From Candidatus Micrarchaeota archaeon (GTDB taxonomy: Archaea; Micrarchaeota; Micrarchaeia; Anstonellales; Bilamarchaeaceae), in contig JAKEGJ010000008.1 of assembly GCA_022627495.1 (NCBI GenBank), positions 8,212-72,211 on the forward strand: DNA of 64,000 bases, in the 5' to 3' direction. A model generated the notes under the pieces. That model was not told the origin of the DNA. It made no database searches and saw only the letters and a program-made list of their open reading frames with translations. The translations under genes and the position numbers were made by a program. This document shows, piece by piece, positions 2,908 to 49,123 of the stretch (position 1 is its first letter; the number at the start of each line of letters is the position of its first letter).

Positions 2908-4668
2908 ATGAGCAAGAACATCAACCAGGCAGTGAACCTCACGTCCTACTTCATCAGCCTCCCCCCGGCGCGCTACATCGTGCTCTCCATCCTGCTCCTT
3001 GGCGTATCATTCGGCCTACTGATAAACCTGGGGTCGGGCAAGAGCATCGAGGGCGCGGTCGCAGACGGCCTCATGCTGCTCACATTGCCCGCGCTCCTCT
3101 CTTCCGCCGTGATAAAGCTCATGAGCCGGAAGATGCCCTACCGCAGGATAGCCGCCACCGCTTTGGGGGGCGAGGCCGTCTATGCGGTCGCGTACGGGGT
3201 GAGCCTTCTCCTTTCCGGCTCCAACCCGTTCCTGGCCCAGCTAGTGCTTTTCCTGGGCGCGGCCATCGTCGTCGTGTTCTGGTACGTGATAGCCCGTTTC
3301 GTGTTCATGCACAAGTACCGCTCCCTGCTTTTCGCTATTATCCAGCTCCTGCTCTACCTTGTCTCGCTCGTGAGCAACCAGGCGCTCTACGTAACGGACG
3401 AGCCGTTTTTGGGGACGGCCGCCAAGTTCTTCATCTCCTCCGCGGTTCTCCTGGCCGCGCTCGTCCTGTTCTTCTACATAATCAACGCGCCGATGAAGAA
3501 GAATCTGGGCCTAAGCAGCACGGATGCGATGTCCTACCTCTTCAGCCAGTGGCTCTACCGAAACAAGGATGTCGAAAAAGTCTTCGCGCAGGTGGGCGAG
3601 GACGTCCGAACGGTGCTGTGCGTCTCGGGCTTCAGGCGCAAGGGCGGGGACATATACTTCGTAACGCCATGCGTCCATTACGGCCCGTTCGGCAACCTCG
3701 GCGGGAGCGAGTTCTCCCACCTCATTGCGGAGGAGATAGACCGCCGCCACAACGCGAAGACCTTCGTCTTCCACGGCACGGTCACCCACGACCTCAATCC
3801 CGTCGCTACGAGCGAGATGTCAAAGATAATCGATGCGTTCGAGGCGTCCCTGGCCGATTCGGCCTATAAGGATGCGAAGGTTTCGATTTCAGTGGGCAGG
3901 GAGGGCGAATGCCGCGCCGAGGCCCTGCGCATCAACGATTCCGCCATTATAGGCCTCAGCCGCGCCCCCCTCGTCACGGAGGACATCAACTTCGGCCTTG
4001 GCCTTGCATTGCTTTTCGAGGCCGAGAAGCACGCGGCGAAAGCGATGGTGATAGACCAGCACAATGCGGAGACCGGGGACATAACCAGTTTCGAGCCCGG
4101 AAGCCCCGTGGGTTACCGCTACCTGGGAGCCATACGCGCCGCGCTTGCGCAGGCGCCTGCAGGCAGGCCGCTGCGCATCGGGGCGGCGTTCCGCCAGATC
4201 GAATCGGACGTTGTCGGCAAGGCCGGGATAAAGGTCGCAGTGCTCTCATCGTCACCAGAATACGTGCTCATCCTGATAGATTCCAACGGCGTCACCCCCG
4301 CCTTCCGCGACCGCATCGAGGCCGATGTCAAGGCGCTCGGGGCGGCTTCTGGCCGCGAATTCATAGTCGGCGTGTTCACGACGGACACCCACCAGACCAA
4401 CATGGTGCGCGGCGTTCTAAACCCCCTCAAGGAGGAGGAGAACGCCCTGAGCATTATCCGCGGCGCCTGCACGGAAGCGGCGTCGGACATGCAGACGGCG
4501 AAGTATTTCTCCGACACGCGGTGGTTCGACATCCGCGTCCTGGGGGCCAAGCAGTCGATTGAAGTTATTTCCACCGTGAATTCGATTGTGGCGGTGGCGA
4601 AGATCACCCTGCCGCTCGTTTTCCTGGGGGGCCTACTCCTGCTCCTGGCAATAGCATCCAAGTTCTGA
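2908..4668 (+). CDS. DUF2070-like archaeal membrane protein
   Basis: 586 aa. N-terminal multi-TM region, a large soluble domain, then a C-terminal TM. This architecture is typical of DUF2070. Confidence 0.5.
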   Translation: MSKNINQAVNLTSYFISLPPARYIVLSILLLGVSFGLLINLGSGKSIEGAVADGLMLLTLPALLSSAVIKLMSRKMPYRRIAATALGGEAVYAVAYGVSLLLSGSNPFLAQLVLFLGAAIVVVFWYVIARFVFMHKYRSLLFAIIQLLLYLVSLVSNQALYVTDEPFLGTAAKFFISSAVLLAALVLFFYIINAPMKKNLGLSSTDAMSYLFSQWLYRNKDVEKVFAQVGEDVRTVLCVSGFRRKGGDIYFVTPCVHYGPFGNLGGSEFSHLIAEEIDRRHNAKTFVFHGTVTHDLNPVATSEMSKIIDAFEASLADSAYKDAKVSISVGREGECRAEALRINDSAIIGLSRAPLVTEDINFGLGLALLFEAEKHAAKAMVIDQHNAETGDITSFEPGSPVGYRYLGAIRAALAQAPAGRPLRIGAAFRQIESDVVGKAGIKVAVLSSSPEYVLILIDSNGVTPAFRDRIEADVKALGAASGREFIVGVFTTDTHQTNMVRGVLNPLKEEENALSIIRGACTEAASDMQTAKYFSDTRWFDIRVLGAKQSIEVISTVNSIVAVAKITLPLVFLGGLLLLLAIASKF

Positions 4669-4809
4669 ATGCGCAATGCGGATGTGCCCCCGGCCGTGCC
4701 GTGCGATTCATTTATAATCATTTATCACCAGTAACCACTCAATTCCCTTTTGCACAGGCTGATTATTGTCCCAGCGCAACCCGCGGCAGAGGGAGTGTCA
4801 GGTGAAAAC

Positions 4810-7710: not shown

Positions 7711-9848
7711 AAAAGTATATAAATAAGGTATACCAATTATCTCCGATGACCTCCCATAAAGTCGTAGCGGCCCTATTGTTATTAATCGGCATATTCTCGG
7801 CTTTCAACCTGTCCGATTACATCTATCCGGAAGAGAAAAATGCCACGATATCCTTCACGAATTACACCGAAGGCGGTTTCGCCTACTCGATAGTCCGGAT
7901 TAACGGTGCCGATACGTTCCTGCTGAAAGGCGGCGAGCCGCTCACCGACCAGTCCGAAATCGAGTCCGCGATGTACTCGTATTACGTGAGGACCTACTAC
8001 CCCACTCCGGCGGAAATAGCCGAGCTCGAGGCTTTCATCAAGCAGTTCAACGACAGCAGGAACAACGGCTACGACTTCAAGAACAAGGAGGAATACGTCT
8101 GCCGCGACGACATTCTGCTTTCCAACGGCAAGATAACCATCTCGGGCGTCCCGGTCCGCTGCACGGACAACCAGTCCTGCCTGAAGAACGCGATGCTCCT
8201 GTTTTCGGTTTACGGCCAGGGCCTGGGCCTCGGCTCTCCCACGGTGATTATCGGGCCCCTTACCGAATTCACCCCCGCAAGCCTCAAGATGGACGGGCTT
8301 CTGGCGAATTACACGTACATGCTTTCAACGATGAACGACAGCAACGTGGTTGAAAACATCAACTACATCAAGGACACCTCCGGAGAGCTCAAGAACCTCT
8401 CGCTAACGGTGGAATCGACAATATTCCGCACCCCGCGGCTGAACGATTCTGTGGACCGGGCGGCCTGCCAGCTCAAGTGCTGGGCCATATGCCCCTCCTT
8501 CGACCTTGACCAGGCTGCGGCGGACGCAATCAAGACCAAATCCGCAGCGCTCGCTGCCAAGCTCGCCCCGCTAAGCGACTTCCAAGGCGCGTCTGATTCC
8601 ATCTACGACCGCACAGTGACGCGCATGGAACACGTCCGGCAGGACAACATGGCCACGTACTACGATGACGTCTTCGCCCCCCTCAACAAGACCGGCGCAA
8701 TGGCGATAGCGGATGCGGAAGAGGCCCTCGGCCGTGTCCAGAACAATAGCTTCGGGGCCAAGCTTGACAGCCTCAAGTCCCTGCACGCGACCATTCCAGA
8801 AGACATCTCCGCCCACCACTTCGACAACCTGGACGCGGACATTGGCGAATACTCAAACCTGACCGAAGAGGTAAGGGCAGGCACGGGAATACTGATGGGC
8901 GGCTACAACGCCACGCTGGAAGCGAAGAACCTCGAAAACTCGCTTCTCATAGTGCTTGAAAGCAAGGACCTCGACCCCGTATCGCTCCGCTCGCTCGAAC
9001 TGCTCAAAAACCAGACGTCGGACCTCGACGCCCAGTTCCGAGACGGGCTCAGCCTGGCTGAACTTGCGGCCCTCGAGTCAAACTACACTTCTCTGACTAA
9101 AATCGAGCAGGACCTCCTGAAAAGCGAGAGCGAGACGCCGGCAACGCGCGTCCTCCTGCTGTTCCGTGGCTTCGCCCGCAAGGTCAATTCCGGGATAGCC
9201 AGCGTGGCGGAGAAGACCGAGGTGGTGCCCCGCTCCGAGATTCCGGAGGGCCCGGCCACGCTCGGACTGTTCTCGCTCCTGGTGTTCCTGTCATTCTCAT
9301 CGATTGCCATGCTGGTCTTCCTCTACATCTTCTCCACGACCAGATTCACGATACCCAAGACCTCGCACATCCTGCTTGCGGCATTCCTGTGCGTTGTTGT
9401 GCTGCTTTTCGTATTCAGCTTCATGATGTACCTCTTCCTGGGAAAGACGTCCACTGATGCGACGCTGCCCGAATTCCTGGCCGATTTTGGCTCCCGCAAT
9501 TCCACATCCATTCTCGTGGACGTGAGGAACGCCTCGTTTTCGGATGCCAATGCCATGCGCATGTGCGCATCCACCCTGGCCTCATCCTTGGCGGAAAGCA
9601 ACAAGAGCTGGTCGCTCTACGTTCTGACGCCCAGCACCTGCACGAAGACAGACAGCAATGGCGGAAACGAGACGCTCGAGTCTTCCGAATGCCTCGGCGA
9701 AACCAGCAGCTCCGAATCATCCTTCCTGCTCGGGTATTCCCCGAAGAACGAGCCGCCGAAGTTCTCGGTGATATACCAGACACGCGCGGAAATCCGCTCC
9801 AATCTCGATTATTACGAATCATGCCCGCTTGTGGCTCTCTTCAGTTGA
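7707..9848 (+). CDS. large sequon-rich surface/membrane protein, hypothetical
   Basis: 713 aa. N-terminal TM/signal, about 19 N-x-S/T sequons, two TM segments near residue 520-580. The ATGA-type start overlaps the idsA stop. Confidence 0.6.
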   Translation: MKKYINKVYQLSPMTSHKVVAALLLLIGIFSAFNLSDYIYPEEKNATISFTNYTEGGFAYSIVRINGADTFLLKGGEPLTDQSEIESAMYSYYVRTYYPTPAEIAELEAFIKQFNDSRNNGYDFKNKEEYVCRDDILLSNGKITISGVPVRCTDNQSCLKNAMLLFSVYGQGLGLGSPTVIIGPLTEFTPASLKMDGLLANYTYMLSTMNDSNVVENINYIKDTSGELKNLSLTVESTIFRTPRLNDSVDRAACQLKCWAICPSFDLDQAAADAIKTKSAALAAKLAPLSDFQGASDSIYDRTVTRMEHVRQDNMATYYDDVFAPLNKTGAMAIADAEEALGRVQNNSFGAKLDSLKSLHATIPEDISAHHFDNLDADIGEYSNLTEEVRAGTGILMGGYNATLEAKNLENSLLIVLESKDLDPVSLRSLELLKNQTSDLDAQFRDGLSLAELAALESNYTSLTKIEQDLLKSESETPATRVLLLFRGFARKVNSGIASVAEKTEVVPRSEIPEGPATLGLFSLLVFLSFSSIAMLVFLYIFSTTRFTIPKTSHILLAAFLCVVVLLFVFSFMMYLFLGKTSTDATLPEFLADFGSRNSTSILVDVRNASFSDANAMRMCASTLASSLAESNKSWSLYVLTPSTCTKTDSNGGNETLESSECLGETSSSESSFLLGYSPKNEPPKFSVIYQTRAEIRSNLDYYESCPLVALFS

Positions 9849-26149: not shown

Positions 26150-26311
26150 CGGGCTCAGAGGGATTTGAACCCTCGACCTGCGGATTTCCGCTTTTTAGGA
26201 AAAAGCGGCCAAAAACTGGCTGTTAATCGCGTTTTCCAAAAAGTAAAAGTCCGACGCTCTACCAAGCTGCTCTCCGCCTTCGTGATGAGGGCGAAACTGA
26301 GCTATGAGCCC
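26150..26311 (-). tRNA. tRNA-Lys(UUU) with two introns (D-loop ~26266-26296; canonical 37/38 ~26186-26243)
   Basis: Removing a 31-nt and a 58-nt segment restores a 73-nt cloverleaf: GGGCUCA UA GCUC AGUUGGUA GAGC G UCGGA CUUUUAA UCCGC AGGUC GAGGG UUCAAAU CCCUC UGAGCCC G. CCA is not encoded. Confidence 0.8.
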
Positions 26312-26432
26312 ATATGTTACGGGATTGACTAGCCTAGAATTATTTTTAAATGGATTAGAGCAATTCCATTCAAGAAAGCCAAGCCTTCCGGTGCAGCGGG
26401 CTGTTCCGGAGGAGGGGTTTTCTGAATTGAAA

Positions 26433-26596
26433 GCCGGGTTGGCAGATCGGCTATGCGCCCGCCTGCAGTTCCCACCTTTTAGGAAAAGGTGGGGTCAAAA
26501 CCGTTTGGAAAAAAACGGGCAGCGGCAAGCGGATTAGAGGGGTTCAAATCCCCGCCCCGATTACCGGGGTTTGGAGGGCATTTCCTCTACCCGGCT
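26433..26596 (+). tRNA. tRNA-Cys(GCA) with two introns (canonical 37/38 26469-26527; T-arm ~64/65 26554-26587)
   Basis: Removing a 59-nt and a 34-nt segment gives GCCGGGU UG GCAG AUCGGCU AUGC G CCCGC CUGCAGA GCGGA UUAG AGGGG UUCAAAU CCCCU ACCCGGC U. This has a perfect 7-bp acceptor, a canonical T-loop and discriminator U73. Confidence 0.72.
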
Positions 26597-26667
26597 TTCT
26601 TTCTTTTTCATCTTATCGTAAATTCAAAAGAATTTCCGATTCGGACAAATTTTGCGAAAATTTGTCC

Positions 26668-46512: not shown

Positions 46513-47208
46513 TTAGGCGTGCCGCAACGGTGCCCGAACGGCCGCAAGCATGGGCATCTGGATGACCTTGGCGCATTGCATCGGCTTGATTTCGGGCATG
46601 GCAACCGGCATGAGGCCCGCCATCGTCTTCTGCGCCATCGCCTTGGCTTTCTTCGTGCCTTTATCAGCGAGCAGCTTGAGGAACTCCATATGGCTCGGCG
46701 TGTCCTCCAGTTTTGCCAGCACCTGCTTAAGCTCCCTGCAGCTGTATGTGGACAGCTCGGCTAGGAGCCTTCCTGCACCGTCCCGCGTGAAATTGCCCTC
46801 GCAAAGCGAGTCCTGCGCCTGCTCGACAAGCCGGTCGATACGGAAGACGCTCCCCCTGGTCTTTCCGAGGGCTTTCAGGACCACCATCGCCACGGACTTC
46901 ATATCCGCTTGCCAATATGTTTTGGCGTCTATGTCGCTGGCCTTCATCATCCTGCCGACAAGGCGTATCCTGTCGGTCAGTTTGCCGTTGAGTTCCTCTT
47001 TCACGGATTCAGGCGGTTCCATCTCCGATACGAGCCCGCCCAAGGCCTCGTCCATCCGGTCGTAAGCTTCGACAAGCGCACCCTTGTCGCGTGCATTGAT
47101 AAGCATCTCGCGCGTGCCCCTTGCGAGCACCGCATTCGCTTCCTGCCAGAACGATTGGCTGTCGAAGCCGACCGTCGGCAACCCGCTGTTCCCATCCATT
47201 TTCCCCAC
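46513..47208 (-). CDS. hypothetical protein, 231 aa
   Basis: Long ORF with coding-like composition. No recognisable motif. Confidence 0.5.
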   Translation of the reverse strand: MGKMDGNSGLPTVGFDSQSFWQEANAVLARGTREMLINARDKGALVEAYDRMDEALGGLVSEMEPPESVKEELNGKLTDRIRLVGRMMKASDIDAKTYWQADMKSVAMVVLKALGKTRGSVFRIDRLVEQAQDSLCEGNFTRDGAGRLLAELSTYSCRELKQVLAKLEDTPSHMEFLKLLADKGTKKAKAMAQKTMAGLMPVAMPEIKPMQCAKVIQMPMLAAVRAPLRHA

Positions 47209-47395
47209 CTCTTTATGGATGCTTCGGGCTTACCCCGTTTTTTTTGTTTCCGCTACCTATGGGTGGTTAAGGGTTTATATATCTTGCTCTGCTTTGTGGG
47301 CAAAAATGCAAGGATTTAGGAAATATGCGATTTAAACCCACACAAAAACAGCGTTTTTTGGTGATATAGGACGGTATCGTCGTAAGGAAAAGCGG

Positions 47396-47665
47396 CTATT
47401 CCATCGGGCGGAAGCCTTTCTGCGAAAATACGTCCGGCTGCCTGCTTATCCATACCTCATACATGGCTAGCCCGGCCTGGGACTTCTTTACTACGCTCGC
47501 CGTAAAACCCCGGAGCTCGTATTGGGATGCGATTCTCTCGGCCTCTTCTATGCTCTGCGTCCTGGCTACAAGGCGCGTATTCTTCTCCGGTTCGATATCC
47601 GGCCTGTCCATGGCTAGGCAATCATGCTTAACCATAAAAAGGATTGGGATGCTCCGGATGGCCAT
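47396..47665 (-). CDS. hypothetical small protein, 89 aa
   Basis: ORF with plausible composition. No motif. Confidence 0.4.
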   Translation of the reverse strand: MAIRSIPILFMVKHDCLAMDRPDIEPEKNTRLVARTQSIEEAERIASQYELRGFTASVVKKSQAGLAMYEVWISRQPDVFSQKGFRPME

Positions 47666-47732
47666 GTCCCTTTGGGAAAGGGGGTTCGGTGAGCGGTGGT
47701 TCTTGGTTTAGATGTTGAAAATAAGGGAAATC

Positions 47733-48073
47733 GGGGTAGTTGCGGCCTTGCAAGCCGCTCCCCCCCCCATTTCTTCGAAATGGGGTCGTTGTGGCCATGC
47801 GTGGCCACTTCTCCCCCATTTTTCTTGAAGCAGAGCTTATGCTAATCATGATAAAATAATGAAAAATGGGGTCGTTGTGACCTTCGGTCACTTCCACCCC
47901 AATTCTCAATGAGGCATTCTGATGCCTTAACAATGGGAAAAGGAGAATTGGGGTCACTGTGATTTGAACACAGATCAAAGCCTTGTCCTAGCCCTTTGGT
48001 TGTTGCCGCTCTCACGGCTTTTGGGGTCAAGCCCTTTTGCCATGAGAATTGCGGAAGCCAAAAGGGCTGCCCG
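47733..48073 (+). repeat. array of five GGGGTC-(variable hairpin)-C-run modules with AT-rich interlocking junctions
   Basis: GGGG(T)C cores start at 47733, 47782, 47868, 47950 and 48023. Each is followed by a different perfect hairpin: GCGGC/GCCGC, GTGGCCA/TGGCCAC, GTGACC/GGTCAC, CTGTG/CACAG, AGCCCTTTTG/CAAAAGGGCT. Strand is not established. Confidence 0.75.
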
Positions 48074-48175
48074 AAGGCTCCAGTCTACCAGGTTAGCCCA
48101 TGACCCCGGCTATGTCTTGTTTGATATTGTTTTCTCGAAACATTTAAGAGGGCATCGCGAAACGCCTGCCTGGGC

Positions 48176-49123
48176 CTACAGGCACTCGGTATCATCGCTA
48201 AGCCGCGGCTTTGCATTGACGTAGTCCAGCCATTTGATGTACCTCTCGTCCCTCCCCTGGACGACGTCGAAGAACGCCTCGCGTATCGCCTTCGTGACCG
48301 GGCCGGGATTCGCACCTATCTCCCTGCGGTCCACGCTCAGGACCGGCGTGACCTCGGCGGCCGTACCGCACAGGAACATCTCATCTGCCGTGTATATTTC
48401 GTCCCGCAGAATCGAGCGCTCGCTGATCGGGATATCCATCTCGCGGGCAAGCTCCATGATGGTCTGCCTGGTGATGCCCTTAAGGACGCCGTCGTGAAGC
48501 GGAGGCGTCACAAGCTCGCCATCCCTTAGCACGAAGATGTTCTCGCCAGTGCCTTCGGAAACGTGCCCGTCGTGCGAGAGCATGATGGCCTCATCGTAGC
48601 CGGCGTTCACGGCCTCCCTTTTTGCCAGGGCGGAATTGAGGTAGTTCGCCGATGCCTTGACATGCGGCGATAGGATGTTGGTGCTTATCCTCCTCCAGCT
48701 AGACACCATGCATTTGATGCCTGATTCCGCCTTCTTTCCGAAGTATTTGGAGAAGTCTATCGGTATTATCGACAATTCAAACGGCTTGCCCTCGGTGCTG
48801 ATTCCTATCTCCGAGTATCCAACGTACAGGATGGGCCGTATGTAGCAGCTTTTCACGCCGTTCCTGCGGATCAGCTCCCGCGTCGCCCTCATCAAATCGT
48901 CCATGGGGTAGTTTATTTCGAACTGGTAGGACTTCGCACCCTGGTAGAACCTCTTGTAATGGTCCTTCATGCGGAAAATCGCAGGCCCTTCGGGTGTGTC
49001 GTAGCATCGCATGCCCTCGAAAATCGCCGTAGCATAGTGCAGGCCGTGGGTGAGCACGTGGATTTTCGCATCCTTCCAGTTGACGAACCTGCCGTTCATC
49101 CAAATCTTCTTGAGGGGCTTCAT
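48176..49123 (-). CDS. ilvE: branched-chain amino acid aminotransferase
   Basis: ..IWMNGRFVNWKDAKIHV..HGLHYATAIFEGMRCY.., fold-type IV PLP pattern. Confidence 0.87.
   Translation of the reverse strand: MKPLKKIWMNGRFVNWKDAKIHVLTHGLHYATAIFEGMRCYDTPEGPAIFRMKDHYKRFYQGAKSYQFEINYPMDDLMRATRELIRRNGVKSCYIRPILYVGYSEIGISTEGKPFELSIIPIDFSKYFGKKAESGIKCMVSSWRRISTNILSPHVKASANYLNSALAKREAVNAGYDEAIMLSHDGHVSEGTGENIFVLRDGELVTPPLHDGVLKGITRQTIMELAREMDIPISERSILRDEIYTADEMFLCGTAAEVTPVLSVDRREIGANPGPVTKAIREAFFDVVQGRDERYIKWLDYVNAKPRLSDDTECL

Follow-up and report, generated by a model that had tools for sequence, protein, structure and literature searches.

An intron-bearing gene for tRNA-Pro(CGG) is predicted, from sequence, folding and comparison with relatives, at positions 48107–47949 (minus strand) of a 64,000-nucleotide stretch of Candidatus Micrarchaeota DNA, which is referred to in its entirety as the window. 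The gene is followed, on the same strand, by three copies of an approximately 50-nt hairpin (modules 1–3, or W1–W3). The locus fills the 564-nt gap between the stop codon of ilvE (48176–48178, minus strand) and the ATG of a gene for a 71-amino-acid (71-aa) protein (47611, minus strand). A preliminary description, made from the letters of the window, had presented it as an intergenic array of five GGGGTC-plus-hairpin modules with interlocking junctions and had missed the tRNA-Pro gene with its intron, to which modules 4 and 5 belong; its observation is partly confirmed and its interpretation partly supported. Apart from a small conserved element that is unexplained, most of the locus is ordinary. 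It probably constitutes a single minus-strand unit consisting of a TATA-like box, the intron-split tRNA-Pro(CGG) and a trailer in which the three hairpin modules may serve as 3′-end elements.

The window contains an archaeal 16S rRNA gene, and the nearest relatives of its ilvE in a homologue search are Micrarchaeota/DPANN assemblies; the host is a Micrarchaeota-like DPANN archaeon. Loci from related Micrarchaeota-like assemblies, designated by L-numbers, were collected via homologues of ilvE and of the neighbouring gene for a 228-aa protein, and a metagenome scan with ilvE yielded almost no close relatives. The tRNA comparison set consisted of the window and eight relatives (L282, L283, L284, L289, L290, L291, L294 and L296).

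The tRNA-Pro(CGG) gene

When read on the minus strand, the GGGGTC core becomes GACCCC followed by A, which corresponds to the 3′ strand of a tRNA acceptor stem and its discriminator base. On this strand, module 4 reads CUGUG-UUCAAAU-CACAG-UGACCCC-A, a T-arm joined to the acceptor 3′ strand, and the partner acceptor strand, GGGGUCA, begins at 48107, beyond the interval covered by the preliminary description. The parts of the gene are as follows.

48142–48147, minus strand: TATA-like box TTAAAT, 35–40 nt before the mature tRNA 5′ end and directly past the ilvE stop (sequence reading)
47949–48107, minus strand: predicted tRNA-Pro(CGG) gene, 159 nt with its intron, found by ARAGORN with introns allowed
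48070–48107, minus strand: exon 1 (tRNA positions 1–37), with acceptor 5′ strand GGGGUCA, D-arm, anticodon stem GAGCC and loop UUCGGG
47984–48069, minus strand: tRNA-Pro intron of 86 nt at position 37/38, with a relaxed bulge-helix-bulge (BHB) motif; holds module 5
47949–47983, minus strand: exon 2 (positions 38–73), identical with module 4, with GGCUU, variable loop, T-arm CUGUG-UUCAAAU-CACAG, acceptor 3′ strand UGACCCC and A73

The gene is missed by ARAGORN with default settings and is reported at c[47949,48107] when introns are allowed. The intron placement given by ARAGORN itself was not adopted, as it lies 2 nt early and leads to orthologues being named inconsistently as Val, Arg, Phe or Leu; the junction defined by the BHB motif is preferred because it results in CGG in every genome. 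When the exons are spliced at the BHB-defined sites, the 73-nt product is named tRNA-Pro(cgg) by ARAGORN. It has a 7-bp acceptor stem, a D-arm, a 5-bp anticodon stem with a 7-nt loop (UUCGGGA) and a 5-bp T stem with a UUCRAAU loop, and it contains all of the invariant nucleotides (U8, A14, G18G19, A21, U33, G53-C61, U54U55C56 and A58) as well as the G37 and A73 typical of Pro; the CCA sequence is not encoded. The D stem is weak, with a single Watson-Crick pair (G10·U25, G11-C24, C12·A23 and U13·G22). The minimum free energy (MFE) fold of the precursor comprises the acceptor stem, the T-arm and an extended anticodon helix. RNAalifold applied to the pre-tRNAs did not return the cloverleaf, with which the intron helices compete, and revealed a conserved inner helix of the intron.

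The identical intron position, the CGG anticodon and the exons recur in all eight relatives, and the exons differ only by compensatory changes: U-A to C-G at acceptor pair 5–68, U-A to A-U in the T stem, and G·U to A-U at pair 27–43. The TTAAAT box is the putative promoter of the gene, as judged from its sequence and position, and the block CCCTCTTAAATGTTTCGAG is kept in L001, L282 and L296/L297.

Searches of Rfam at the gathering threshold and at E ≤ 10 returned nothing relevant in the region; the only matches were snoZ188 (16.6 bits against 50), SNORD46 (14.6 against 40) and RMST_1, with E-values of 2.7–7, and membership in the C/D-box small RNAs or any other Rfam family is not indicated, all scores being below the gathering threshold. 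The tRNA gene is ordinary and of a kind already described in Micrarchaeota, though it evades annotation. Default tRNA finders and Rfam miss this gene and at least one other disrupted tRNA gene in the window, so that the tRNAs of genomes of this sort are under-counted, and a missed tRNA gene leaves in the annotation what appears to be an odd intergenic repeat field.

The intron at position 37/38

The BHB motif is formed by the anticodon stem GAGCC/GGCUU, the 3′ bulge CA↓A, the central helix UUCG/AGGA, the 5′ bulge GG↓C and the inner helix AGCCCUUU/AAAGGGCU (arrows, splice sites). Its geometry was computed for nine genomes, each of which has the two bulges and the two flanking helices; the central helix has three pairs and a conserved G35·A, with two pairs only in L290, L291 and L294. 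With these central-helix mismatches the motif fits the relaxed form better than the strict 3-4-3 one. The inner helix varies in sequence but remains paired (AGCCCUUU, GAGC, AAACUUUUUGG, GAA). The splicing endonuclease would cleave at this motif, and a ligase would join the exons to give the 73-nt tRNA.

Module 5 of the preliminary description, that is, the core at 48023 together with the AGCCCTTTTG/CAAAAGGGCT repeat, falls within the intron, and its sequence UGACCCCA is confined to one intron type, that of the window, L284 and L296. Among the genomes the intron varies from 55 to 86 nt and belongs to three sequence types, always at position 37/38. The intron of the window is 93% identical to that of L284 and 85% identical to that of L296, compared with 53% at the third codon positions of ilvE, and the conserved inner helix UCUCAUGGC/GCCGUGAGA shows covariation; for these reasons the intron may, on comparative grounds, serve some purpose beyond being spliced out.

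Three hairpin modules in the tRNA trailer

A covariance model, R1, was built from nine module copies in five genomes and was scanned against 465 kb, comprising the 64-kb window and 400 kb of other loci, drawn from all the relatives and from unrelated controls. Downstream of the tRNA gene the trailer contains the following features, for which R1 scores, MFE values and folding z-scores are given where they apply.

47912–47927, minus strand: small trailer hairpin AGGCAU-CAGA-AUGCCU, inside a 36-nt insertion unique to the window genome
47860–47907, minus strand: W3 (module 3), GAGAAUU-GGGG-UGGAA-GUGACC-GAA-GGUCAC-AACGA-CCCC-AUUUUUCA; R1 66.9 bits; MFE −26.8 kcal/mol, z −6.1
47825–47859, minus strand: T-rich tail of W3 and conserved spacer AUUAUUUUAUCAUGAUUAGCAUAAGCUCUGCUUCAA, the AT-rich stretch of the preliminary description
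47776–47824, minus strand: W2 (module 2), GAAAAAU-GGGG-GAGAA-GUGGCCA-CGCA-UGGCCAC-AACGA-CCCC-AUUUCG; R1 58.6 bits; MFE −26.4 kcal/mol, z −6.8
47725–47775, minus strand: W1 (module 1), AGAAAU-G9-A-GCGGC-UUGCAAG-GCCGC-AACUA-CCCC-GAUUUCCC; R1 55.1 bits; MFE −28.1 kcal/mol, z −4.1

The 5′ half of a module consists of an A-tract, GGGG and the conserved loop strand (G/A)GAA, and the 3′ half consists of the conserved loop strand (A/G)AC-N-A, CCCC, A or G, and a T-rich tail with runs of T5 to T9. Between the two halves lies a sequence-variable upper stem of 5–7 bp, closed by a terminal loop of 3–7 nt. In each module the A-tract and GGGG pair with CCCC and the U-tract, and the asymmetric GAA/AAC internal loop is kept in all nine copies while the upper stems differ. 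This loop, compared by eye, does not fit a kink-turn (K-turn), loop E, an H/ACA pocket, C/D boxes or a BHB motif. The modules were also considered as 3′ halves of a tRNA-Pro(GGG) or as pieces of a split tRNA, for which they are approximately 6 nt too short and the acceptor stems they would form are mismatched.

The five hairpins quoted in the preliminary description are all in the sequence, and GGGG is found (plus strand) at each of the five core positions (47733, 47782, 47868, 47950 and 48023), the first core being CGGGGTA in place of (A/T)TGGGGTC. The C-run that was said to follow every hairpin is seen only in modules 1–3; its place is taken by ATCAAAGCC after module 4 and by GCCCGAAGG after module 5. 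The grouping of all five into one family does not stand, since only modules 1–3 are true repeats and the other two are parts of the minus-strand tRNA gene. A strict pattern (GGGG, 1–7 nt, a perfect stem of at least 5 bp, 1–7 nt, CCCC) matches only modules 1–3 within the 64 kb. The heptamer TGGGGTC occurs eight times in the window against 7.8 expected, which is the level of chance, and four of the eight lie within 248 nt on one strand, a clustering far beyond chance according to a Poisson estimate.

It had been proposed that each G-run pairs alternately with its own C-run or with that of its neighbour, so that adjacent modules would alternate between folds that exclude one another, much as a riboswitch or an attenuator does. 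The three junction complementarities on which this proposal drew are present (for example, 47896–47907 and 47943–47954 match at 12 of 12 positions), and the arms of neighbouring units include a perfect 12-nt match of the tRNA 3′ end and trailer with the 5′ arm of W3. Such complementarity arises automatically, however: the modules share the arms GAAAWWTGGGG / CCCCAWTTTYC, every unit, including the tRNA 3′ end with its trailer, has the consensus CCCCAWTTYC / GRAAWTGGGG, and cross-module pairing is a by-product of these equal inverted arms. When folded singly, modules 1–3 have z-scores of between −4.1 and −6.8 (−2.4 to −6.8 over all copies), the hairpin of each module takes 29–79% of the predicted ensemble, the spacing and order of modules vary between genomes, and the next gene has a TATA-like box of its own. 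Switching is therefore regarded as highly improbable.

Conservation and distribution of the modules

All nine copies detected with R1, in five genomes, lie just downstream of tRNA-Pro: three in the window, two each in L283 and L284, one each in L289 and L294, and none in L282, L290, L291 or L296; in L282 a degenerate module is found past an inserted DUF4177 gene. Homologous modules with covariation, which the preliminary description had looked to relatives to provide, thus exist as six further copies in four genomes. W1 corresponds to module a of L283 and L284, and the W3–W2 spacer can be aligned with the one that separates modules a and b in L283, L284 and L289; the 36-nt insertion around the small hairpin at 47912–47927 is absent from L283 and L284 (alignment A1). 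R1 detected no copies outside tRNA-Pro trailers in the 465 kb, and a dispersed repeat of the repetitive extragenic palindrome (REP) or miniature inverted-repeat transposable element (MITE) type was set aside on this result.

Standard pairs occupy 88% of the cells in the model alignment, compared with 42–54% when the partners are slid by 1–3 columns, and double substitutions are found at three of the six upper-stem pairs (U-A/C-G, G-C/A-U and A-U/C-G). The earlier argument for selection on structure, not on a reading frame, is borne out by these changes and by the open reading frame (ORF) across the modules, which is not conserved: L283 has ATGGGGGAGAAGTGA, which runs into a stop. A protein-coding explanation was rejected, the ORFs at 47628–47978 and 47964–48224 having no Pfam match and the frame being broken in L283.

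The last 14 nt of a module match the tRNA 3′ end at 8–12 of 14 positions (for example, TCACAACGACCCCA versus TCACAGTGACCCCA). The sequence that joins W2 to W1, CCCCATTTCGAAGAAATGGGG, recurs unchanged in L284 between the tRNA and module a; recombination between the repeated arms has accordingly reshuffled the array. The modules are paralogous copies of a locus element that is conserved in related genomes, and the array they form is small, conserved and lineage-restricted, made of acceptor-like hairpins with oligo-T.

The array could also act at the level of DNA, as a set of palindromes or cruciforms that proteins bind: recombinase sites, for instance, or, as the preliminary description had it, origin recognition boxes (ORBs) around an AT-rich unwinding element. 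Palindromes with G-runs do lie beside A/T tracts, the modules score with R1 on both strands, and the mismatched pairs in them comprise 10 G·U and 7 A·C. Against this, the dyads differ among copies in a way that a sequence-specific binder would not tolerate, conserved A·A mismatches break the dyad symmetry, and the supposed unwinding element is the T-rich tail of W3 and its spacer. Nor does an origin find support in the surroundings, as cumulative GC skew is monotonic across 44–52 kb and passes through the region without inflection, and orc1/cdc6 is absent among the genes within approximately 6 kb. A role at the DNA level is very doubtful indeed, and the ORB field of the preliminary description is not upheld.

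Possible roles of the modules

Our best guess, a tentative one, is that modules 1–3 are hairpin/oligo-U termination or 3′-end elements derived from the tRNA 3′ end. They would have arisen via duplication of the tRNA 3′ end; the hairpin with its oligo-U would stop transcription that starts from the strong tRNA promoter, and the modules would give the transcripts stable 3′ ends and protect the lipoate/2-oxoacid dehydrogenase operon that lies downstream. The tRNA is followed immediately by only T3–T4 in the window, L283 and L284, and in these genomes the modules bring the first long T-runs. Among 145 runs of five or more T residues (T5+) in the window, the sites of W2 and W3 rank first and second for the stability of the upstream hairpin. 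According to published work, a run of five to six T residues is enough to terminate transcription in archaea and tandem oligo-dT terminators exist (PMC2253867), and U-tracts set the efficacy of termination jointly with aCPSF1 (PMC8716108). The minus-strand cascade of CCCC-A-U-run terminators in the preliminary description comes near to this reading as far as modules 1–3 are concerned; it had been assigned to ilvE, and what the modules trail is the tRNA. The tRNA has its own TATA-like box directly past the ilvE stop.

Several points weigh against the unit as proposed here. Its tRNA part includes the conserved G35·A mismatch in the central helix of the BHB motif, with a second mismatch in three genomes. 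With respect to termination, a hairpin is not required in archaea. The T5+ runs of the window have, on average, less upstream structure than random sequence (mean MFE −9.6 versus −11.5 kcal/mol), so that hairpin-type terminators are not general in this genome, and a simple terminator scan does not flag modules 1–3. L289 and L294 keep a module despite T5–T6 directly after the tRNA, L291 has neither a direct T-run nor a module, and the modules are dispensable, since they are absent in L282, L290, L291 and L296. The wobble count given above is compatible with either strand, and a pure terminator role leaves the conserved internal loop unexplained.

That loop is the starting point of a different proposal, in which modules 1–3 are functional structured RNAs: acceptor-like hairpins, released from the tRNA transcript or separately transcribed, whose GAA/AAC loop and GGGG/CCCC stem are read by a protein. 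The constancy of the internal loop in nine of nine copies with differing upper stems, the strong folding, and the Rfam search without a match are in keeping with it, as are related hairpins, comprising a copy of tRNA nt 1–13 and GACCCCA, in the 5′ leader of the tRNA in L002 and L290. On the other hand, evidence of a separate promoter is absent at the modules, no copies occur elsewhere in the 465 kb, close relatives retain all neighbouring genes and lack modules, and the loop, from its sequence, is unlike a K-turn, loop E or an H/ACA pocket. This proposal is accordingly held to be improbable.

The leader hairpins (L002 3116–3154; L290 approximately 4640–4680) lie some 15 nt ahead of the mature tRNA 5′ end. 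Each contains the copy of tRNA nt 1–13, a TTGAAC/GTTCAA stem, and GACCCCA or GCCCCG, and the two are homologous though their genomes are fairly distant. Together with the modules they could represent a new family of elements that mimic tRNA ends, restricted to the tRNA-Pro(CGG) locus in a single clade of Micrarchaeota, perhaps excised by tRNA-processing enzymes as minihelices or acting as protein-bound insulators at an insertion hot spot, with the conserved 86-nt intron perhaps yielding a functional (circular) RNA; we consider this broader picture rather unlikely. Whatever their role, the puzzle is that a clade of ultrasmall archaea keeps two to three acceptor-like hairpins behind one tRNA gene, with compensatory changes. 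If they are hairpin-dependent terminators or processed minihelices, they would be a new, if modest, addition to archaeal RNA biology.

An insertion hot spot and the neighbouring genes

The 5′ end of the tRNA-Pro(CGG) gene is an insertion hot spot in relatives (L291 6116–8994; L001 5030–6133; L002 3116–3185; L285–L287). L291 carries a 2.86-kb insert with HNH genes that is bounded by a repeat of the promoter and tRNA nt 1–16, L001 has a tyrosine integrase directly after tRNA nt 13, and L002 has AT-rich foreign DNA after tRNA nt 16. The repeats expected of att sites are thus found at the tRNA 5′ end in L291 and L001; modules 1–3 bracket only 50–86 nt and no genes.

This setting gives rise to the main rival explanation, which is that modules 1–3 are slowly decaying, non-functional relics, att-like copies of the tRNA 3′ end left either by the insertion and deletion of mobile elements or by unequal crossing-over at a recombination hot spot. 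The insertions in L291, L001 and L002, the 8–12 of 14 nt shared with the tRNA 3′ end, the copy number of 0–3 and varying order between genomes, the junction shared with L284, and the degenerate module beyond the inserted gene in L282 would all be expected of relics. Decay is difficult to reconcile, however, with double substitutions that maintain upper-stem pairing and with arms, an internal loop and a spacer that are far more conserved than the third codon positions of ilvE (53%); moreover, no tRNA 3′ end contains the 5′ arm of a module, and it is the 5′ end of the tRNA, never its 3′ end, at which the documented insertions lie. An origin as relics consequently seems unlikely, and 3′-end elements remain our tentative choice for the modules.

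A phage or plasmid origin of the region was rejected, as BLAST searches of the region against phage and plasmid collections gave no matches. A scan of viral contigs with the 14-mer CGGGGTCATGGGCT gave only chance matches, in bacterial phage genes. In L282 a Cas12f1-like/TnpB fragment (8667–8913, minus strand) adjoins the lipoyl synthase gene, a sign of IS200/IS605-type elements in the clade.

The gene that follows the modules is listed below.

47396–47640, minus strand: 71-aa hypothetical gene with TATA-like box (ATG at 47611; box UUUUUAUGG at 47640–47632; gene call in L081; no Pfam match)

The box is kept in L289 and L294, and because the gene has this TATA-like box of its own, the modules are not its 5′ untranslated region. 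The genes for the 71-aa and approximately 228-aa proteins (window 46513–47611, minus strand) are always found after tRNA-Pro and before lipA, have no Pfam match and appear to be clade-restricted, with only 14 homologues among 5.8 billion proteins.

A second disrupted tRNA gene and a tRNA-like gene were noticed in the window. The first, at 26150–26312 (minus strand), escapes ARAGORN whether or not introns are allowed; its D-loop is interrupted by a 30-nt intron and position 37/38 by one of approximately 58 nt, and after manual splicing ARAGORN reports tRNA-Lys(ttt). The tRNA-like gene lies at approximately 26432–26600 (plus strand) with the T-arm GGGGTTCAAATCCCC, a possible GCCGGGT/ACCCGGC acceptor stem and at least one insert, in which the TGGGGTC match at 26490 is located.

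Comparison with known systems

The modules resemble REP and MITE palindromes in being short, imperfect palindromes with conserved arms, arranged in tandem and variable in copy number, and differ from them in not being dispersed, with one locus per genome examined. The likeness to archaeal ORB and mini-ORB elements is that of a G-string beside a short dyad near an AT-rich stretch; here, however, the dyad is not conserved, the G-run and C-run are on opposite sides, and neither an orc1/cdc6 neighbour nor a change in skew accompanies them. As at the att sites that tyrosine recombinases use in tRNA genes, inserts in relatives lie between repeated copies of the tRNA 5′ end, one insert having an integrase, and the last approximately 14 nt of the modules are common with the tRNA 3′ end. 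Unlike att sites, the modules are on the 3′ side, carry no cargo, have inverted arms and keep their pairing by compensation.

With bacterial intrinsic bidirectional terminators the modules share a GC-rich hairpin between an A-tract and a T-tract, with a stem that reaches into the U-run; the archaeal host, the conserved 5×5 internal loop in the stem and the failure of a simple scan to call them set them apart. In archaea, the tandem oligo-dT terminators of the Pyrococcus histone gene (PMC2253867) and U-tract termination with aCPSF1 (PMC8716108) likewise involve consecutive T-runs behind a short, strongly transcribed gene, T5+ being enough, whereas in the modules each T-run forms the 3′ arm of a conserved long hairpin whose A-tract matches it, an arrangement that archaeal terminators do not require and that other T-runs of this genome lack.

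The closest parallel to the tRNA gene is found in ARMAN-2 (Candidatus Micrarchaeum acidiphilum), in which 56% of the tRNA genes are disrupted, the epsilon2 endonuclease cleaves relaxed BHB motifs, and the D-arm of tRNA-Pro(CGG) has one Watson-Crick pair (PMC3239211). Like archaeal tRNA genes with BHB introns, and ARMAN-2 tRNA-Pro(CGG) in particular, the gene described here has an intron at 37/38, splice sites in 3-nt bulges beside the anticodon stem and a one-pair D-arm, and it belongs to a lineage with more than half of its tRNA genes disrupted and an endonuclease that tolerates relaxed motifs; it is distinguished by the G·A mismatch in the central helix and by a long, 86-nt intron that is unusually conserved.

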